DNA of 64,000 nucleotides from Ascidiella aspersa. Lineage: Eukaryota. Position 1 is the stretch's first letter. Every line of letters starts with the position of its first letter. The notes beneath the pieces are model-generated. The model saw only the letters and a program-made list of their open reading frames with translations, made no database searches and was not told the DNA's origin. The position numbers and the translations under genes were made by a program. Of this stretch, positions 48,232 through 61,340 are shown piece by piece. The stretch is from the NCBI GenBank assembly GCA_963924565.1, contig OZ004607.1:8680001-8744000 (forward strand), in the 5' to 3' direction.

Positions 48232-51200
48232 ATGAAAGTCACCAAACAGAAGGAGCTGAAAAGTAACCCTTTAAAAAATGCTAACTACCTTTCCATGATC
48301 ACCTTTTGGTAAGCTGTAAATACTGTTTTTAAATTTGGTATTTTTGTTAAATATTTATAAAGTGTTGAGTTGCCTATGTGTGTGTTTAAACATTAAAGTG
48401 AAACTAGATCCCTGATTTAGATACAATCTGAATAAAAAGCAATGCTGTCTTGACTTAAGATAATGATGTAGTGGTCAATTTTAATAGTTTAATGTTTTAT
48501 TTATTATGTCAATGACTTGCCTTGAAGTTTACTTGGCTGTAATAATATATTGACTGGGGCTTGACTTGGGTAATTGATAACTTTGACTTGTCTTGTTTTT
48601 TCTCCAAAATACTTAACTACATGTTTATTTTACAAATAATTCTACTGCGACTTGTGTCATTTTAAAATGACTTGTTTACATCTCTGATAAGTGCTTCTTT
48701 TGAACTATTGAAATAAATAAATTCTAATTACTTAACGTTTTCAATAGTGTTATTGCTGTGTTAAACATGGTTTTACAGTAAACTTTAATAATTTACTTCT
48801 GACATACTTCAAATTTATAATATATAAAGTGTATTGCTCTTTTCTTTGCAAGATTGAAGATTTTTCCTAATATGTTAAATATGGTCAATATATTGAATTT
48901 CATTTAAGTAAATTGACATGGCTTTATTCATTATATTTACGCTAAACTTTTTCTTTCAGGTGGCTTAATGGGTTTTTCCGGCAAGGTAAAGAGCGCGATC
49001 TACAAGAGACTGACATGTTTGAGTTGCTTAAAATGGATCAGTCGAACACCATTTGCGACAAGCTTGAAAGGTGTTTACTGTTTACCATATTTATTTGACT
49101 TTTTTTGCTTTAAATAACCAACACATAAAAATTAGTATTATTTATTTATAACAGCAGCTGAGTAATGCGATTCACATGGTAAACCCTATGATCTAGCGCT
49201 AATAAAGTAGTACTTACCAATGATTAGGGCTAGGGGTGTCTAATACCCGGTATTTTGGAAAAAAGTTTCGCAATTTTATCTGATACCATTGGCGTCATTA
49301 CTATAGTCCAGTGATTCTTAACCGGTGCGCCGTGGTGGGCCATGGAAGGTTGTCAGGTGCGCCGCGAGCAAAAGGAAGAAAAAAAAATAACAACAAATAT
49401 ATATATATATATTTTACTCTTCTATTAAGCTTAGCTCATTGATTTCACAGTACTTTAAAGTAGAAAACATAATAAGAATTACAAAGCAGCAATATCTAAA
49501 TCAGATAATCTATAATACCATAGTAATAAAACCACCGACATAATAACGCCAAATTTGCAGGAATAACCACAACAGATTAAGATCTGAAATAGTCTAGATA
49601 GGACCATGTTAAAATAAGTCCAAAATTAATCTGAATAAGACTTAAATGAACAAAATAACGCCTAAGACTGTAGGGAAAGGGTATAGGATGATTGGGGACA
49701 ACCTGTCTGGCATTGGCCGTTTGCTGTCAACATTTGGACGCCGCTATTTTGGCCACGGATTTTTTGCACCTGTTTTGGCTTATGGGTGATGTTAGCAATT
49801 TGGTTAGAGTTGAAAATATGAAGAGAGTTAGTGATAGTTATGCATTGGATTTGGAATTAGACAAAGGTTGTATAGGCCTTATTTGGGCCATATGGGTCTG
49901 ATTCCAATTTCGTCATTATTACGACTATTAGATATTAGTCCTATGTACGCCTTATTCCTAACTGTCTTTTATTCCAAAGTTGATGTTGTTCCAATTTTGG
50001 TCTCAAGGCTCCCTTTAAAGATTTGCAACTTCCTATATAATGCCATTATAATGAAAAATTGCAAGCAATTTAAAGAGTCCTTTTAAAGATTTGAAACTTA
50101 AAAGCCTATTAATTAAAAATTGCAAGCAATTTAAAACAAATACCGGTACACCTCAAAAATTTCGCACTCGCTTCGCTCGCAAGGTACGCCGCCATGTTTT
50201 CATATGTCTCTAGGTGCGCCCCCAAGTAAAAAAGGTTGAGAAACACTGCTATAGTCAAATAAACAAAATACATCAAAATGCAATGGTGATAATTTTTAGG
50301 TTATTAGGGTGAAATTAGCTTTTGTGCTAGTTTATCTTTAATTTTAAATGTAATGTTTTCAAGGAAATTTGCCTTTGAAGGTGGAAAACTTTAGGTTAAA
50401 ATGCAACACATGACTAAATTGCACAAATTAATTTGGTATCAGATTGGCACTGTTTCAGAGAACTGATACTATCACTTGGCATCAGATGTCGGCTTTGATT
50501 CATATTATCAGACATCCCTAACTATCACATACTCATAAATGATATACGGTGTGTGCTCGGAAAGGTTTTCTAGCTTATTTGGCCTAACCAGCAGGTTTTG
50601 TTCAATTAAAATCAATATGGAACTATGCACCAGTATTTGACCTTTCAGGTTAGCATAGGTCAAGAGTTCAAACCTCACCACAGACTATTTTTTAGCCTTG
50701 CAGGAAATCCCCTATTAGGCGAACTGATTTTGGTGAAAGATTCTCTATAAATACCTGGTTTATCATTTGTAACACCCCTATAGCTTATCTTTTATTGTTA
50801 ACATTTGTTCACTCTATCAAAGCATAACTTAAGCTTAAAATTGTTTTGTTATTTTCAGAAACTGGAATAAAGAGCTTGAGGCATATCATGCCACCGGCAA
50901 AAAGCCAAGTCTTTTTAAAGCCGTTGGTCGAACTTTCTTTCTTCGCTGGCTGGTCTTTGGTTTAGTTGCCTGCTTAGAGGTAAGAAAGCAAATAAAACAC
51001 TTGTTGAATTCATTACATCAAAAAGTGATTTCTTTTTTTTCATCAAATAAACTTGTAAATGTAATTATATATATGTAGCGGAATGCCATTGCATTAATAT
51101 TATATAATTTAAAAATCTTGTTTTTTTGCTTATAGATGTGGTTAAATATATGTAGAAGACTGCCATTATATTATTATAAGAATTTTTGATAATAATCGTT

Positions 51201-54200
51201 TTTTTTTAATTGTTTTGTAATATATTAAAAAAAAATTAAGAAGTAGGCAGCTCTATTATCTTTCCTAATGTTGGTAGAAACCATGGCAAAGCTACTATTG
51301 TGGGGTTTATCTGTATGTATTTTGGTCAAATACGTCAGCCTATCCTCCAACTGTATCAGGCCAGTTTACGAAGACAACTTTTCTTTCCAACTTTCGCAGG
51401 AAGTCTTTATGGTGATTAACCCTTTGCTAATTGCTGGCATCCTGAGATACTTTGAGGGCAGGGAACCGATAACGAATGCCTATTGCTACGCGGCCGGCAT
51501 GTTTGTTGTGCCATTCTTCATCAGCCTATTTCACCACATATACTTCTTCAACCTACAGCGGATGGGATGGCATATAAGGGCAGGAACTTGCGCCCTGATG
51601 TACAAAAAGGTGAGTGGTACTAAAGTTCTGGCTTTTTCTCTACTCACTAGTCATCTGGATTGGTTGTGTGTTAAGGATGCTAGCACAATGATTCCAAAAG
51701 TAGGGTCATAATCCTTTGACGCAGGGGTCAACAAACTTTTTTCAGTTAGGGACCGATAGCTCTCTAGGATTGGCAAACAATGGCCTGAGAACTGTAGGTA
51801 TTGAATGTCGCCGGCTGGATTTAAAACTTTGTATTGACCTATTTGACTTGACTATTATTAAACAAAGAAAACAATTGCAATTTTTGAATACAATATAATT
51901 AGTTTTGTAAAATGGTCGTTTAGTTTAACATTTCATCAAAATTTAACCTAGTTTGGCATGTGTCAAAGATGATTTCATAAAATCGGCGCTATAAACACCT
52001 CAGAAAAAACTGCTTTCATATGTTATACATATATCTTAATTACTGCAATAAAAGCTTTTGGGTATTTAAATTCCAAATTTGCAATCTACTTGTTTAAAAC
52101 TGCATTTGTTTATTTCAGACTCTCCGCCTCAGCCAGAAAGCTTTGGCCAGCGCCACAACAGGCCAGATTGTTAATCTCGGTGCCACTGATGTCATGAGAT
52201 TTGACATGGTAATTACCCATTTGTTGTTGAGTTTTATTTATATAGCATGTTTCAATTGTTAAAACGTCGTTAGTACATGTGTTTAATGGGTTTATATTAA
52301 GCCCATGAAAAGGTCAAACATTATTAACCTGTAAACTAATTATATATTTTTTTAAATATAGACTAAAATTGAGGCCTCCTCTCTGTAGCACAATGAATAA
52401 ATAAAAATATTTTCACCAATATTCGAGATACAAAGTTTTTCAGAATAATGCAATAAAAAGATACAATATTATGTCAATTTTGCAGAAATCAAGTGCTGTA
52501 GGCATAATATTTAAAAATAGGCCTGATATGGAATGAATTCACTAAATAACGATGGGTAATTTTAGTTTAAATTTAAGCCCAACTTCTAGTTTTTGCCAAC
52601 TTAATTCTGATCGCATTCTCAAGCAAAACAGAACTACCTCATAATATGCTGTTGCTAGTAGTGCACTAAAAAGAAGTTCTTCCGGTACTTTCATCCAACG
52701 CTTTCATCTGCCATATTGGATGCCAACACCACCACTGTTGTATTACTTCACGTTGTTTCGCTGCATACCCTGATGAAGGCATCCTGTATAGGTAGTCGAA
52801 ACGTTGGTAAAAAATATTGCCGGAAGAGCTTCATTTTAGAACTACTACCAGCTGTCCAATTCTGCTATAGGTTATCATTTTTTTTGACATTTTTTAATTT
52901 TACTTCACAGCTTACCCTTTTCCTGCACTTTATATGGATCAGCCCGGTCACCTCACTGGTGATAACTTACCTGCTCTGGAAAGATTTAGGACCTTCTTCG
53001 TTGGCTGGCATCATTATCATGTTTGTCTTTATGGGAACTCAAAGCTTGCTGGGAAGGCAGTTTGCGCGTCTCAGGTGAACTACAGACCGTTTTATTGTTG
53101 TTAATTGTTAAAGCTTCGTTCTAAATATAACGGCGTGTACGTAACTTGATACGTTGAGGTGAAATGTGTAGTTTGTAAATAAAACAGTGCACGTTGATAT
53201 ACTATAATTGCAATGATTTTCGCTTTAAGTACACTTGATGTTTACCAAAGAATCCTGCTTTTCCTCATATAAAAGATTGCTGTCGAAAATCGTGTCAATA
53301 TGAGAAATTTGTTCTGGACTAGAGATTTACGATACTTTTTTATTTCGTTACTTACGTAAATTATGGCCGAAAAACTTGTGCGTTCAGAGGCTATAATTTA
53401 AACTTACAAAGTAATAATTTCCAGATTGTTAAGTAGTAAATTTATTTTTAAAAAGTTATCAATAAACGTTTCAGTGTTCTAACACTGTACTTTTAAGGTG
53501 GAATACGCTATGAAAGTAAATCAATTGGACGTAATGCACAATTAATCCGTTTTTGTCGCTCACTATACCCCTGTAGTATCGAATGATTGGCGATAACACG
53601 ACCTGGTTTAGAATATATATTCCGATCCGATATTATCGGACATCCCGATCGGGCACCCCCCAATTGCTGTCCTAAACCTTAGTTTTAGAACCCCTTGCTT
53701 TAAGTTAATAGTGCCGAAAATGTATTTTCTGGACATTAGTTATTGCCGAATTTATTTTTCGGTTTGGATTGGTGCGTTTTTTACCGAATTTTTGTCTGGA
53801 GTTTTATTTGTATGTTTATTTTCTCGCAGAGCGAAGATGGCGGTTTTGACCGACAGGCGAGTACGAACTATGAACGAGGTCCTAACTGCGATGCGCGTCA
53901 TCAAGATGTACACCTGGGAAAAGCCATTTGAAAGTCTGATCGGTTCCATTCGAAGGTAGGCAATAGGCATATTCGGTAATTGTGCTCTTTCAGTGGTGTT
54001 CTGTATGTGCATTAGAGGGTGTGTAGTATAGTGTTAACAAAAGTTCACAATTGTCACGTTTCAGAAAAAGTCGCGATTAAAACACGACTAGTGACGCTTT
54101 ATATTTTGAGCTGGTGAAATGTTAGACAAAAATTATTGAATATCTTAAAAAGATGTTCTGTGATTTTAGGCCATCATTTCACAATTGATCAAACTGCTTA

Positions 54201-57200: not shown

Positions 57201-60200
57201 CGCCGCCGTGGCGAATGCTATAAATTACCTAGTGTTACGCAACCCGTTAAACCACATGCCGCAACTTCTGAGCATAAAGGGAAATTGCGCCATGTCCTGA
57301 AACGCTTCACAGCACTCCCTCCTTGCCAACGGATATTGACCTCATCTCGCTCACTCCCTTACATCCGACCGACAAGTTAAATTTATCGTAATCTAAGTTA
57401 AATTACATTTTAAGTTCTGTTTTTTGACAATGCTTCGCACATACACGGGCATTTGTAAATATACTAGTAATGCCAGACATAGTATAATAAAAAGAAGCTC
57501 TTGCTTAAAGGTACTTATTTATTTAATCCGACATTCCGGCAAAGTGTCCGAACCGAGTATTTTGCCGTTTTAAATTTTAACTTCACTTTTCGTTCTTCTT
57601 TCGTGCAGGCAGGAAATTCGCAAAGTGGCCGTGTCGTCGATCATGAAGGCCTGCAACTTCTCGATGATCTTTGTGACGTCACGCCTCCTCATTTTCGCCA
57701 CAGTCGCCATTTACGTCTCGACTGGAGGTCACTTGACCGCGTCCAAGGTGAATAGGTCGCGTTTTTTTACAGTCACTGGAATTTTGTTTTGTTGATGACG
57801 TGAGCTAGGGATGTGCAATGATTTCGTATCAGAGCCGATATTCTATGCTCAGTGGTATGATGCGATGCCAAATTAATATCGGTTTTTCAGACTTGATTTT
57901 TCATCCCATGCAAAGATTTCTACTTTGAATTAAAAATTAGTTAGAAAACCTAATATAACTAAGTTTCTCAGCGCCAAAGCAAGTTTTTGGCTCATAACCT
58001 TATAACCTATAAATTAAGACTTTTAAATGTCAAAATTTCATTTTAATTGTTGTAATGACGACATTTAATTGAGTAACAGCGTCATTTGATAGCATAGTAA
58101 TAATGACGTTATTTAAATCGAATCGGATTGCGATCCTTTTTGTTAAACTATCCCGCATCGATATCGAAATAAAATGTCTGCATCGGACATCCTTGCATGA
58201 GCTATTTTCGAAATGTTTGTAAAAAGTGAAAGTCGTTACCAGTGTTCCCACTAAAAAATTATCAGACTGATGTTTATTTAGCTAAGCATGATAAATTTGG
58301 GGTTGAGAGTGGTCGAATCTTATTTTATTTTTAGCAGCAGTTATTATGTTCAAAATGCTACCTACTTCTGTATGGAATTTGATATTTTTATTACGTGAAA
58401 CTATAACCTCCAACCATTATGTTCAAAAGTACTAGAGACGTTCTTGTCGAGTCCTGTCACGTATTTAATGAACTTATTGCTGACCTTTTAACAACACAGA
58501 ACTGTTATGAGCTATGGTGGCCGGAAATTATTCAGCAAAACCATCACGTGCGTAGTTTATCAAGCTCCTAATTTAACTTGCTTGGCGACAAAAGGCCATG
58601 ATGACTTGTATAATGCTAACCGTTGTAGCATGCCATCGAAGTTTATGGCCTTTTAGCAGTCATTGATTGTTTTTATAAAGCTAAGGCGAAGTCCGTTTAA
58701 TAGCCAAATGTTTGTACATGTAATAACAAAAAATGCTGGCTGTTTGATACAGCATTTACACAAGCTGAACACACACATACAATGTATTTTGGCCATTAAG
58801 CGGATGCCTTTGAATGTTCAAAGAATAGGCCTAAGCGGGTATAAACTAAGGTTCACAGAATGCTATTGTAAAATAGAGCCATTTGTAAAGAACCAGTAGT
58901 AAAGCAAGCCGCCCTTAAAAGCCTGTCTGTTGTCTGTGTAAAGTTTGACATCCAAAATTCTTTATAGGTAATTGGATAATCATTTTAAACGCCATTAGCC
59001 TTTATTTTATGTTAATGTCTTTTTAACCTTGTAACGTTAGAATTGACAAAAGATTGTTCATTCTTTTTCATTCCGGATAATGTGTCTTAATATATAAACT
59101 GTTGCTACCAGGCATGGTAATATAAATCAAAAACAGCTCCTCTGGTAATTGTAATTATTAACCAACGTTTCGGAAACCTATACAAGCCGCCTTCGTCAGG
59201 GTGATTGACACTGAACGCTCGCGCGTTAATTTTCGTTCGCATCACCCTATTTACCAAATGAGAGGTGTCGTGCGATCACTTGAGGACCAGGCGCGACGCC
59301 TATGTTCTAACAGCATTGAGCGCGAGGTGGAACTTAAAAAGGTACACGAAGCCCTGAAGTCCAACGGTTACCCCAACTGGATGTTCCACGACCGACCGAA
59401 TTCTGTTGCCACGCAGGTTAGTTTTGTAAAAAAAGATGGGTTTGTTACGTTGCCCTACATACCAAAACTAACCGATGTGTTAAGACGTATGTTGGGAGAC
59501 TTCGGTATAGCGGTTGGTGTGCAACCTGCCAATACTCTTCGAAAGCTTCTTAGTCAACCCAAAGATCCCATCAGTTCCTTTGACCAACGAGGTGTGGTAT
59601 ATTCAATCCCCTGTGCGGATTGTAATTTGGTCTATATCGGCGAGACTGGAAGGTCATTCAAGACTCGCCGTAAAGAACACCAAAGGGACGTGGCAAATAA
59701 CGACGCAAAGAAGTCTGCACTCTCATACCATGCTGTTTCTCGAAACCACCAAATTGATTTTGGTGGCGCTTCAATAATAGCACGAGAATCAGACTACAGG
59801 AAAAGATTATTTTTGGAATCGTGGAATATTCATAGGAAGGGTAACACCATGAACGTCAAAACTGACGTGATGCTTTCTGCATGCTACAAGCACCTGCTGA
59901 AGGACTAGCGGCAGTCGCTAATTACTTTCTTATCGTTTTGTTGCTCGCGTTTATTTCTGTTTTTTTCTTTTTTTCCTTTCCATTTATTGCACGAGCGTTC
60001 AGTGTCAATCACCCTGACGAAGGCGGCTTGTATAGGTTGCCGAAACGTTGGTTAACAATTACAATTACCAGAGGAGCTGTTTTTGATTTATATAATGTGT
60101 CTTAATGTATCTTTTTGGTAGATGCTGTTCGTAAACACACTACGAAACCTCCAAATGCCTAAAAAAAAAAAAAAAATAGGCATCATTAAATTAAACATTG

Positions 60201-60436
60201 TTCGACTTGATACACGGCATCACTAAACAATGTTTTCCCATGTGGCCCCGATGAGTTTGGACCACCCTAGCCTATAGCATCTTGTTACGGGATCCATCAG
60301 TAAACCATTTTTTCACACTTTCAAGGTCTTCTCGGCGATCGCCCTGTACAACGTCATTCGCGTCTCGATGGGAATCTTTTTCCCGCTCGCCATTGAGAAG
60401 CTCGCCGAATCCCTGATCAGCATGCGTCGCATACAG
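48232..60436 (+). CDS. ABCC4: ABC transporter C family, MRP4-like ('short' MRP without TMD0); first nine coding exons (L0 + TMD1), continues beyond the window
   Basis: In-frame exons 48232-48308 ([26 protein letters not shown]), 48960-49070 ([20 protein letters not shown]), 50859-50979 (WNKEL..KPSLFKA), 51400-51609 ([26 protein letters not shown]), 52119-52208 ([18 protein letters not shown]), 52911-53074 (FLHFIWISP), 53830-53955 ([27 protein letters not shown]), 57609-57747 (LTASK), 60326-60436 ([20 protein letters not shown]). Confidence 0.92.
49309..50248. mobile_element. hAT (Buster/Charlie-type) MITE nested in a TAGGG-family MITE, ABCC4 intron 2
   Basis: TIR CAGTGATTCTTAACC...GGTTGAGAAACACTG. 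Perfect TSD CTATAGTC. Confidence 0.9.
50659..50730 (+). mobile_element. Degenerate copy of the tRNA-derived SINE-like element
   Basis: GTCAAGAGTTCAAACCTCACCACAG..GCCTTGC..ATTAGGCGAACTGATTT is colinear with 55099-55182. Confidence 0.55.
52648..52855. mobile_element. Old Penelope-like pLTR remnant in inverted (foldback) arrangement
   Basis: 52648-52724 is a degenerate reverse complement of 52778-52855. It shares the hammerhead and the downstream motif with the 59-60 kb element. Confidence 0.65.
52766..52809 (+). ncRNA. Minimal type I hammerhead ribozyme motif (Penelope-type)
   Basis: TACC CTGATGA A GGCATCCT-GTAT-AGGTAGTC GAAA CGTT GGTA: intact core, 4-bp stem I, palindromic AACGTT stem III, two mismatches in stem II. 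Confidence 0.7.
55055..55187 (+). mobile_element. tRNA-derived SINE-like element / tRNA pseudogene
   Basis: A-box-like TCTCTCAGTTGGTAGAGC, B-box GAGTTCGATCC, T-stem GTGAG/CTCAC, acceptor-like CTGTG/CGCAG. The anticodon arm does not pair. The 3' tail is shared with 50659-50730. Confidence 0.7.
59161..59202 (-). ncRNA. Minimal hammerhead ribozyme motif, inverted copy
   Basis: The reverse complement reads ACC CTGACGA A GGCGGCTT-GTAT-AGGTTTCC GAAA CGTT GGT. Confidence 0.65.
59201..59908 (+). CDS. Penelope-like element C-terminal region: RT thumb/linker remnant + GIY-YIG endonuclease (partial)
   Basis: Uninterrupted frame with [66 protein letters not shown]. The first codons derive from the inverted pLTR. 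Confidence 0.85.
   Translation: MIDTERSRVNFRSHHPIYQMRGVVRSLEDQARRLCSNSIEREVELKKVHEALKSNGYPNWMFHDRPNSVATQVSFVKKDGFVTLPYIPKLTDVLRRMLGDFGIAVGVQPANTLRKLLSQPKDPISSFDQRGVVYSIPCADCNLVYIGETGRSFKTRRKEHQRDVANNDAKKSALSYHAVSRNHQIDFGGASIIARESDYRKRLFLESWNIHRKGNTMNVKTDVMLSACYKHLLKD
60011..60052 (+). ncRNA. Minimal type I hammerhead ribozyme motif (Penelope-type)
   Basis: ACC CTGACGA A GGCGGCTT-GTAT-AGGTTGCC GAAA CGTT GGT: intact core, 8-bp stem II including G-U pairs, palindromic AACGTT stem III, 3-bp stem I. Confidence 0.75.
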
Positions 60437-61340
60437 GTTGGTAAAACCCTCTTCGAAGTTGAAAGGTTGAGACTTGAGCGTGCGCCGGTTCGAATCCCGC
60501 CCCTGCCACTTTTGCCGTCGAAAAAAAAAATGTGGTCGAAATTTCCCATGTCAAAAACTTTTACGACAGTTTCAGGGATGTCTGATAATATTAGATCGGA
60601 GCCGATATATGTGGTATTTTATCGTTAATCGTCCGATACCAGGGTGGTATCGATACTTTTTGTCTGAAATATCGGAAAAGGTATCGGATATCCCTACTAG
60701 TGGCATTGAAAAAAATATAGACTAAAAATAGTTAAATATTATTACAAAAATACCGTTTTTTCTTAAACGATATCCCCAGTTTTGACAAAACAAACACAAA
60801 ATAACAAAGGATATAAAACCGAAAGTAGTTTAATTGTTGTATGACGAACCACGGGGACGGCCAAAACATAGCAAGCATTGATTTACTATCATTGAGCGAT
60901 TTATTAATAACTCTTTTGACAATATTTATTAAACCCATGTTGGTGAAAACTTATATACTTCGCAGAAGATAGTATTCTAGCCTTTTCTTGTTTACAATAC
61001 TGGCCTTATTAGACCAAAAAGTTTCGGTAATAGCCTTTTCGAAGGCACCTGTATATTATTACGAGTATGCCATAATCGTTGTTCAGTACTACTTCAGCAG
61101 GGCTGATCACGGTTTAAAGCCATCTGAATTTCACGACTCAGTCGCGCCTAAAAAAGAGTGTTTATTTACGCTAAATATGCCATATAATGTACGCATTTTA
61201 TTCCGATATAAATTACCCTTATATGTTGGATAAAAAAACGTCCCATGCGACATAGTTTTAGTACAAAGGAAAAAAATACAACGGTATTTTGACGGGCTTT
61301 TGTTCAACACCATTATCGAACACCCCCCTACACCCTAGCG

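Follow-up and report, generated by a model that had tools for sequence, protein, structure and literature searches.

A truncated, inverted Penelope-like insertion with a probably silent hammerhead ribozyme in an intron of a putative ABCC-type transporter gene of Ascidiella aspersa

The insertion and its host gene

The window analysed here, 64,000 nucleotides of Ascidiella aspersa DNA (contig OZ004607.1, positions 8,680,001 to 8,744,000 of the forward strand), covers part of a gene matching a 1415-amino-acid ABC transporter of Phallusia mammillata, a protein named CFTR by its source. This protein was mapped exon by exon on the plus strand from window position 48250 to about 22 kb beyond the window end, with 64% identity on one exon, and exons match along the whole of P0001 with no decay seen. 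Judged from these matches, the host is a complete ABCC-type transporter gene; the label ABCC4 given in the original prediction is one that we take to be plausible.

The insertion is located in a 2.6-kb intron between an exon ending at 57748 (57610..57748, plus strand) and an exon starting near 60326 (60326..60437, plus strand), which confirmed the intronic position that had been predicted. The acceptor of the downstream exon is found beyond the arm duplex described below, about 220 nt after the insertion. Within the same intron, positions 58348-58422 contain a short fragment of a high-copy repeat (DNA depth about 600 versus 3-7), and the many stranded RNA reads found there derive from other loci. 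Just after an exon donor, a tRNA-like stretch at 60460-60510 gave a weak match to a T-arm model; we presume that it may be a tRNA-derived SINE.

Sequence comparison within the window revealed an exact 15-mer target site duplication (TSD) at 59077..59091 (left copy) and 60092..60106 (right copy), in line with the 13-15 bp proposed earlier; the first 2 bases of the 15-mer are also compatible with the element end. The left TSD copy is followed by a 'tail' of about 28 nt (59092..59119, minus strand), which encodes the opening codons of the element's ORF, an assignment based among others on a near-full-length family copy (L146), and which is missing at the right end. The tail belongs to the left arm (59120..59221, minus strand), an inverted 5'-truncated copy of the pLTR that is antisense in the host pre-mRNA. 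A 4-nt filler (59222..59225) forms the head-to-head junction between the two element halves. The sense half consists of the 3' part of the ORF (59226..59908, plus strand) and of the 3' untranslated part with the pLTR, ending without a tail (59909..60091, plus strand). Altogether, the tailed piece is 130 nt and the tailless piece 895 nt long. When the reverse complement of 59120-59221 was aligned with 59992-60093, 102 nt matched with 2 mismatches (60039/59174 and 60056/59157), exactly the picture of roughly 100-bp inverted arms with two differences that had been described.

The stop-to-stop frame 59162-59908 of the ORF list encodes 248 amino acids, of which the first ~21 codons are antisense arm sequence. 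The RT catalytic core is absent; only the end of the RT thumb, a linker without a Zn finger and the GIY-YIG endonuclease (EN), with C-x2-C and two His, are retained. Thus, the frame proposed as an open GIY-YIG frame is indeed open, but its Pfam GIY-YIG match (E=7.7e-4, 20.2 bits) stays under the cut-off of 22.6 bits and its start belongs to the antisense arm. The proposed young age was likewise upheld in part: the TSD is perfect and the insertion body is 99.1-99.5% identical to the nearest family copies, but the arms have already diverged by 2%. In one sample, which may be the source of the assembly, unitigs span both insertion junctions at full depth, and the empty-site joint was absent among the best 15 of 114 matches. 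The insertion is a 5'-truncated, non-autonomous Penelope-like retrotransposon (PLE) composed of two head-to-head 3' ends inside a 15-bp duplication.

The element family and its minimal hammerheads

DNA read depth over the arms reached 970-1250, compared with 3-7 in the unique flanks, which corresponds to some hundreds of short 3' ends; the family comprises several hundred copies, most of them short. RT is joined with a C-terminal GIY-YIG domain in one ORF in the copies L146 and L062. Pfam matches to the family ORF were weak (RVT_1, E=0.04; GIY-YIG, E=0.001), and 18 longer homologs were found at 25-42% identity, 13 of them with PF00078. The near-full-length copy L146 (2814-5924) is broken, as a foreign insert of ~700 bp splits its linker. 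Its partial 5' pLTR begins at stem I of the hammerhead, continues into the ORF and has the same sequence as the stretch after the ORF in the window copy; the ORF starts inside the extra 28-29 bases that form the tail. No cysteine cluster, i.e. no Zn-finger motif, was visible in the alignment of the RT-EN linker; a Zn finger at this place is described for Neptune and Nematis (PMC8557442).

The combination of a tail, an inverted 5'-truncated copy and a TSD corresponds to the PLE layout, with a tail of 28-29 nt that is slightly short of 30-40 bp. By its sequence features, the family is an EN+ Penelope-like element, probably of the Penelope/Poseidon type, and the anatomy of the window copy together with the family supports the earlier assignment to PLEs with inverted pLTRs and minimal hammerheads. 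Two other classifications were rejected. A non-LTR retrozyme, built of tandem non-coding repeats that each bear a hammerhead in the same orientation, does not fit, as the two ribozymes occupy opposite strands on either side of an ORF remnant. Likewise, a MITE or fold-back DNA element, which would have symmetric terminal inverted repeats of fixed length, was dismissed because arm lengths and junctions vary from one independent insertion to the next and the two ends are not alike. Copies that looked full-length and tandem, spaced 3.77 kb apart, turned out to be a larger repeat with one small inverted stump. This amplified stump occurs at L066, L067 and 13 other loci (e.g. G000:C3:7681000-7786400); the 3.77-kb unit is tandem on C3 and dispersed elsewhere, and places same-strand hammerheads 3.77 kb apart. 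At L191-L194 and L173-L174 the insertion was duplicated together with its flanks, reflecting local segmental duplications.

As predicted, each strand carries one hammerhead core, starting at +60014 and -59199. The sense hammerhead (60011..60052, plus strand; predicted cut 60049/60050) has an intact core, a 3-bp stem I, an 8-bp stem II, an extra A after A9 and a GUU triplet; C15.2 abuts G16.2, and stem III is reduced to a 6-nt palindrome without a loop. Therefore, two copies are needed to build stem III via this palindrome. With its G10.1-C11.1 pair, the right-arm motif has the features of the minimal type I hammerhead of PLEs. The minus-strand motif (59161..59202; predicted cut 59164/59163) is of the same minimal type, with a C.U mismatch in stem II at 59174, and its ribozyme strand is not produced by the host transcript. 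In agreement with known PLE minimal hammerheads, the sense motif combines the conserved core, an extra base between 9 and 10.1, G10.1-C11.1, an 8-bp helix II and palindromic 15.2-16.2; it differs by the GUU triplet and by a helix I of only 3 bp, compared with the 4-5 bp reported.

The proposed covariance-model search did not return a hammerhead: an Rfam scan of the window at E<=10 gave 4 matches, none to a hammerhead family, and a canonical hammerhead with a full stem III was rejected on this ground. The motif is not a chance match, since a genome search with the exact 23-nt ribozyme sequence gave 132 matches versus 0 in the reversed control. In the fetched loci, 89 distinct minimal-hammerhead motifs were detected versus 2 in reversed controls, and other families show variants of the minimal hammerhead with paired stem II.

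The predicted fold of the monomer is an inactive rod in which the core pairs with the cleavage-site strand, whether the left arm is present or absent. For the Schistosoma motif, Cervera and De la Pena reported no cleavage as a monomer and low cleavage as a dimer (PMC4209133), and a review agrees on this behaviour of minimal hammerheads (PMC6765202). The ribozyme of the Poseidon element PAc was cleaved only with the element protein, and RNA-seq showed no ends at the site (PMC11167929). Pairs of minimal hammerheads on opposite strands, 100-700 bp apart, are also on record (PMC4209133). The sense ribozyme of the window is, according to the fold predictions, likely silent with or without arm pairing.

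A second, older minimal hammerhead from a related family is situated in an earlier intron of the same host gene (52767..52808, plus strand) and has no covering arm. Its element (52666-52839) is bounded by 20-nt inverted ends, with the sense core at 52770, ~100 nt upstream of an acceptor; relatives with 65-91% identity form short head-to-head pairs as well.

Predicted arm pairing in the pre-mRNA and the intron survey

The arm duplex was predicted at -180 kcal/mol, compared with -11 and -22 kcal/mol for the local folds. When the whole insertion was folded, 99 of 101 left-arm bases paired with the right arm and the core nucleotides of the sense ribozyme were bound by the left arm with a probability P of about 1. 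The pairing of the arms into a long duplex over the sense ribozyme, as originally proposed, is thus borne out as a prediction. Furthermore, the inverted geometry implies that the antisense arm is transcribed first whichever strand is read.

To place the window copy in its family, 172 fetched loci were classified; 17 were dropped as copies of one insertion inside larger repeats, leaving 155. Sixty-five loci were head-to-head inverted and 90 single, where the singles may conceal arms <17 nt or 5' ends outside the 941-nt reference. A duplex over both ribozymes would be possible in 25 of the 155 loci.

Long near-perfect duplexes are substrates of ADAR. The hairpin, a predicted intramolecular intronic duplex of ~100 bp that has its like at these 25 loci, could therefore act as double-stranded RNA and lead to A-to-I editing, small RNAs or altered splicing of the next exon. 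We consider such a role improbable. The acceptor is about 220 nt past the duplex, the host exons are free of visible decay, and nothing distinguishes the window copy from other inverted copies. One thin RNA run gave a depth of 0.4-2.3 over the flanking exons and 0 over the unique intron, while the reads over the element derive from many copies and are not locus-specific. In these multi-copy reads no pile of read ends was found at the predicted cut, and the A>G/T>C site counts (10/16 in RNA, 10/18 in DNA) are uninformative on editing at the locus.

According to the original prediction, the duplex would make the insertion tolerated: the sense hammerhead would otherwise cleave the host pre-mRNA, and the insertion would persist thanks to the inverted arm. 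The intact sense ribozyme, the stability of the predicted duplex and the order of transcription speak in favour of such shielding, and canonical retrozymes of Xenopus are depleted in introns according to a preprint (10.64898/2026.07.22.740005), the portion considered here being free of strand data. In its best form, the sense ribozyme would need shielding from a heterodimer with the sense hammerhead at 52770, as the motifs at 52770 and 60014 are sequence-compatible, sharing the stem I strands and the palindrome. Against this form stands the distance, as the 52770 motif is found 7.2 kb upstream, beyond two exons, and its stem II is weakened; in addition, dimers are reported as poor cleavers (PMC4209133), stem I is merely 3 bp, and the monomer would be inactive even without the left arm. 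Moreover, the 52770 motif is itself an unshielded sense minimal hammerhead in the same host gene.

Introns were called over the family with our own exon model, which used codon usage from the host gene and Pfam-confirmed exons together with splice weights. The cut-off was passed by 37 of 155 loci versus 2 of 155 reversed controls, and 42 intronic loci were obtained after removal of one ambiguous locus and addition of six Pfam-based calls. Two PDB searches for confirmation of single exons at intron-call loci gave no match, so that for L075 and L110 the Pfam support is limited to a single flank.

Among the 42 loci, unshielded intact ribozymes were sense in 11 and antisense in 11 cases, 22 informative copies that exclude only a strong bias and are compatible with a weak one; at most, the doubtful intron calls L195, L180 and L208 would turn this central count into 10 versus 11. 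Damaged ribozymes were as evenly distributed (4 sense, 4 antisense), with an under-count of copies damaged in the 5' half of the ribozyme, as loci were picked by an exact match to this half. In three of the sense cases, L093, L205 and L230, one Pfam domain (a carboxypeptidase, an OATP and a Rabin8-like domain) is found on both flanks. Inverted copies were not enriched in introns (16 of 42 versus 49 of 113 other loci, p=0.59), and full coverage of both ribozymes was seen at only 4 of the 42 intronic loci, compared with 21 of the 113 others. A lean seen early disappeared: a first subsample, in which intronic sense ribozymes tended to be damaged or rare (intact and unshielded, 1 sense versus 5 antisense), was not upheld in the larger 42-locus set.

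Shielding is therefore very unlikely, even more so than a role of the hairpin as double-stranded RNA, and the claimed tolerance through the duplex was not supported. As unshielded sister copies are found in introns equally often on either strand, arm pairing is likely a by-product of the insertion and not a protection. The intron count removes the need for a shielding story, and the null result suggests that minimal PLE hammerheads are nearly invisible to selection in host transcripts.

Ends of inverted copies, proposed origin and known systems

The TSDs of inverted copies have a mode of 13 bp and were 12-15 bp long in 45 of 64 cases. Of the classifiable inverted copies in a first set, 39 of 40 combined a tailed with a tailless end (p=4e-11). 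The same was found for 18 of 18 copies in a second set, giving 57 of 58 in total; the exception, L151, was scored as having two tails, on the basis of a weak partner (81%), and is doubtful. In seven further inverted copies, a tail at one end is accompanied by truncation of the other. The single copies were 42 tailed, 47 tailless and 1 truncated. Both kinds of 3' end, which are separated by 29 nt, terminate in an identical 7-nt T/A motif (60085-60093 and 59092-59098 in the window); the motif often has 1-4 nt matching the target and is a candidate priming signal.

Non-majority alleles were common to both sister arms at 66 of 5513 sites in the first set, compared with an expectation of 0.27% (maximum 0.48% in 500 shuffles), a sharing that later gene conversion or two RNAs of one locus could also explain, and sister arms differed at 2.7% versus 4.6%. 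Several of the shared alleles are private to one insertion. End exclusion and shared rare alleles together suggest that both cut ends prime on one source RNA, with different starts.

The junctions consist of overlaps of 1-7 nt or short fillers, and some overlap as small palindromes, at L107 by 21 nt. The tailless arm reached further 5' in 43 of 64 copies and the tailed arm in 19 of 64. A leader-follower model, in which the tailless arm would be systematically longer, was abandoned, since 43 observed cases compare with 38.5 expected (p=0.13) after correction for offset and picking bias. At L076, L110 and L106 an internal second piece without overlap with the first was seen, resembling LINE-1 twin priming.

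Inverted PLE copies have been proposed to arise by self-priming on an antisense template (PMC3846280), and the inverted arm could stem from such a fold-back or from two independent RNAs at one break. Palindromic overlaps as at L107 would suit a fold-back, and two RNAs from one active locus would share alleles, too. However, folding back of the first cDNA cannot account for copies whose tailless arm is the longer one, such as the window copy and the 43 cases above, because the tailed arm cannot have been the template there. At about half of the 56 simple junctions, gaps or fillers take the place of overlaps, which also argues against fold-back, and with independent RNAs the exclusion of tails in 57 of 58 copies is left without a reason. 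We regard these origins as unlikely, but they deserve more weight than a double-stranded RNA role of the hairpin.

Our main reading, to which we assign a probability of about 0.85, is that the window insertion is a truncated inverted PLE stump which probably arose by double-ended priming, whose arms would pair but whose ribozyme would be silent anyway, and which is likely near-neutral. In the proposed mechanism, the element endonuclease would make a staggered cut of about 12-15 nt, and both DNA 3' ends would prime reverse transcription on RNA of a single source element. The tail end would serve as one start site, and the tailless end, about 29 nt upstream, as the other. Each subunit of the element protein would hold one cut DNA end and use a different start site; the two start sites 29 nt apart would yield exactly one tail per inverted copy and arms that share a template. 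Two truncated cDNAs would then be joined head to head via short microhomology or filler. In the host transcript, the antisense arm would be made first and would bind the sense arm into a duplex of ~100 bp. As the hammerhead would need a second copy for stem III, and perhaps the element protein too, the intron would rarely be cut anyway, and the insertion would likely be near-neutral.

The more general claim, that inverted Penelope insertions are the trace of target-primed reverse transcription begun at both ends on one RNA, with two protein subunits and two start sites, stands at about even odds in our judgement. If true, the double-ended model explains the inverted pLTR and the one-sided tail, both long without an explanation, in one step. 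An inverted pLTR with a one-sided tail and a TSD is already known as the typical PLE layout; the notable part is the end pattern at the family level. The locus itself matters little as one of dozens of like stumps, whereas the family represents a clean record of PLE insertion, and the 57 of 58 exclusive ends with their shared alleles make a sharp prediction for an existing in vitro system. The origin of inverted ends and one-sided tails of PLEs is called undefined in PMC8557442. In the open-access literature searched, no statement on mutually exclusive ends on one RNA was found.

In LINE-1 twin priming both target strands prime, and the inverted junction shows microhomology or filler. There, the two segments do not overlap, whereas the arms of the present family repeat the same 3' end.

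The PLE layout with inverted pLTR, tail and TSD is described in PMC3846280, PMC8557442 (as a scheme) and PMC2377424. EN+ PLE insertions such as Pen2a/Pen2 of Adineta vaga (PMC3846280) and Penelope of D. virilis (PMC2377424) share with the window copy the head-to-head 5'-truncated copies, the tail at one end overlapping the ORF start, the TSD and the C-terminal GIY-YIG domain. In contrast to these, the window copy is only 1 kb long and has neither an RT core nor tandem direct pLTRs. The Ascidiella tail measures ~28-29 nt, and the TSD mode is 13 bp versus the 8-10 bp cited for Adineta.

A close biochemical parallel concerns Poseidon PAc of Anolis carolinensis, for which both strands were extended in vitro from two start sites with a protein-assisted ribozyme (Frangieh et al. 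2024, PMC11167929). Like the present family, PAc has two classes of 3' ends one tail apart, AT-rich targets and a hammerhead next to the ORF start. In the parts of that paper considered here, start sites are reported as bulk data for each strand, with no connection drawn to inverted insertions; in the family of the window, by comparison, the two ends are mutually exclusive per insertion and both finish in the same 7-nt motif.
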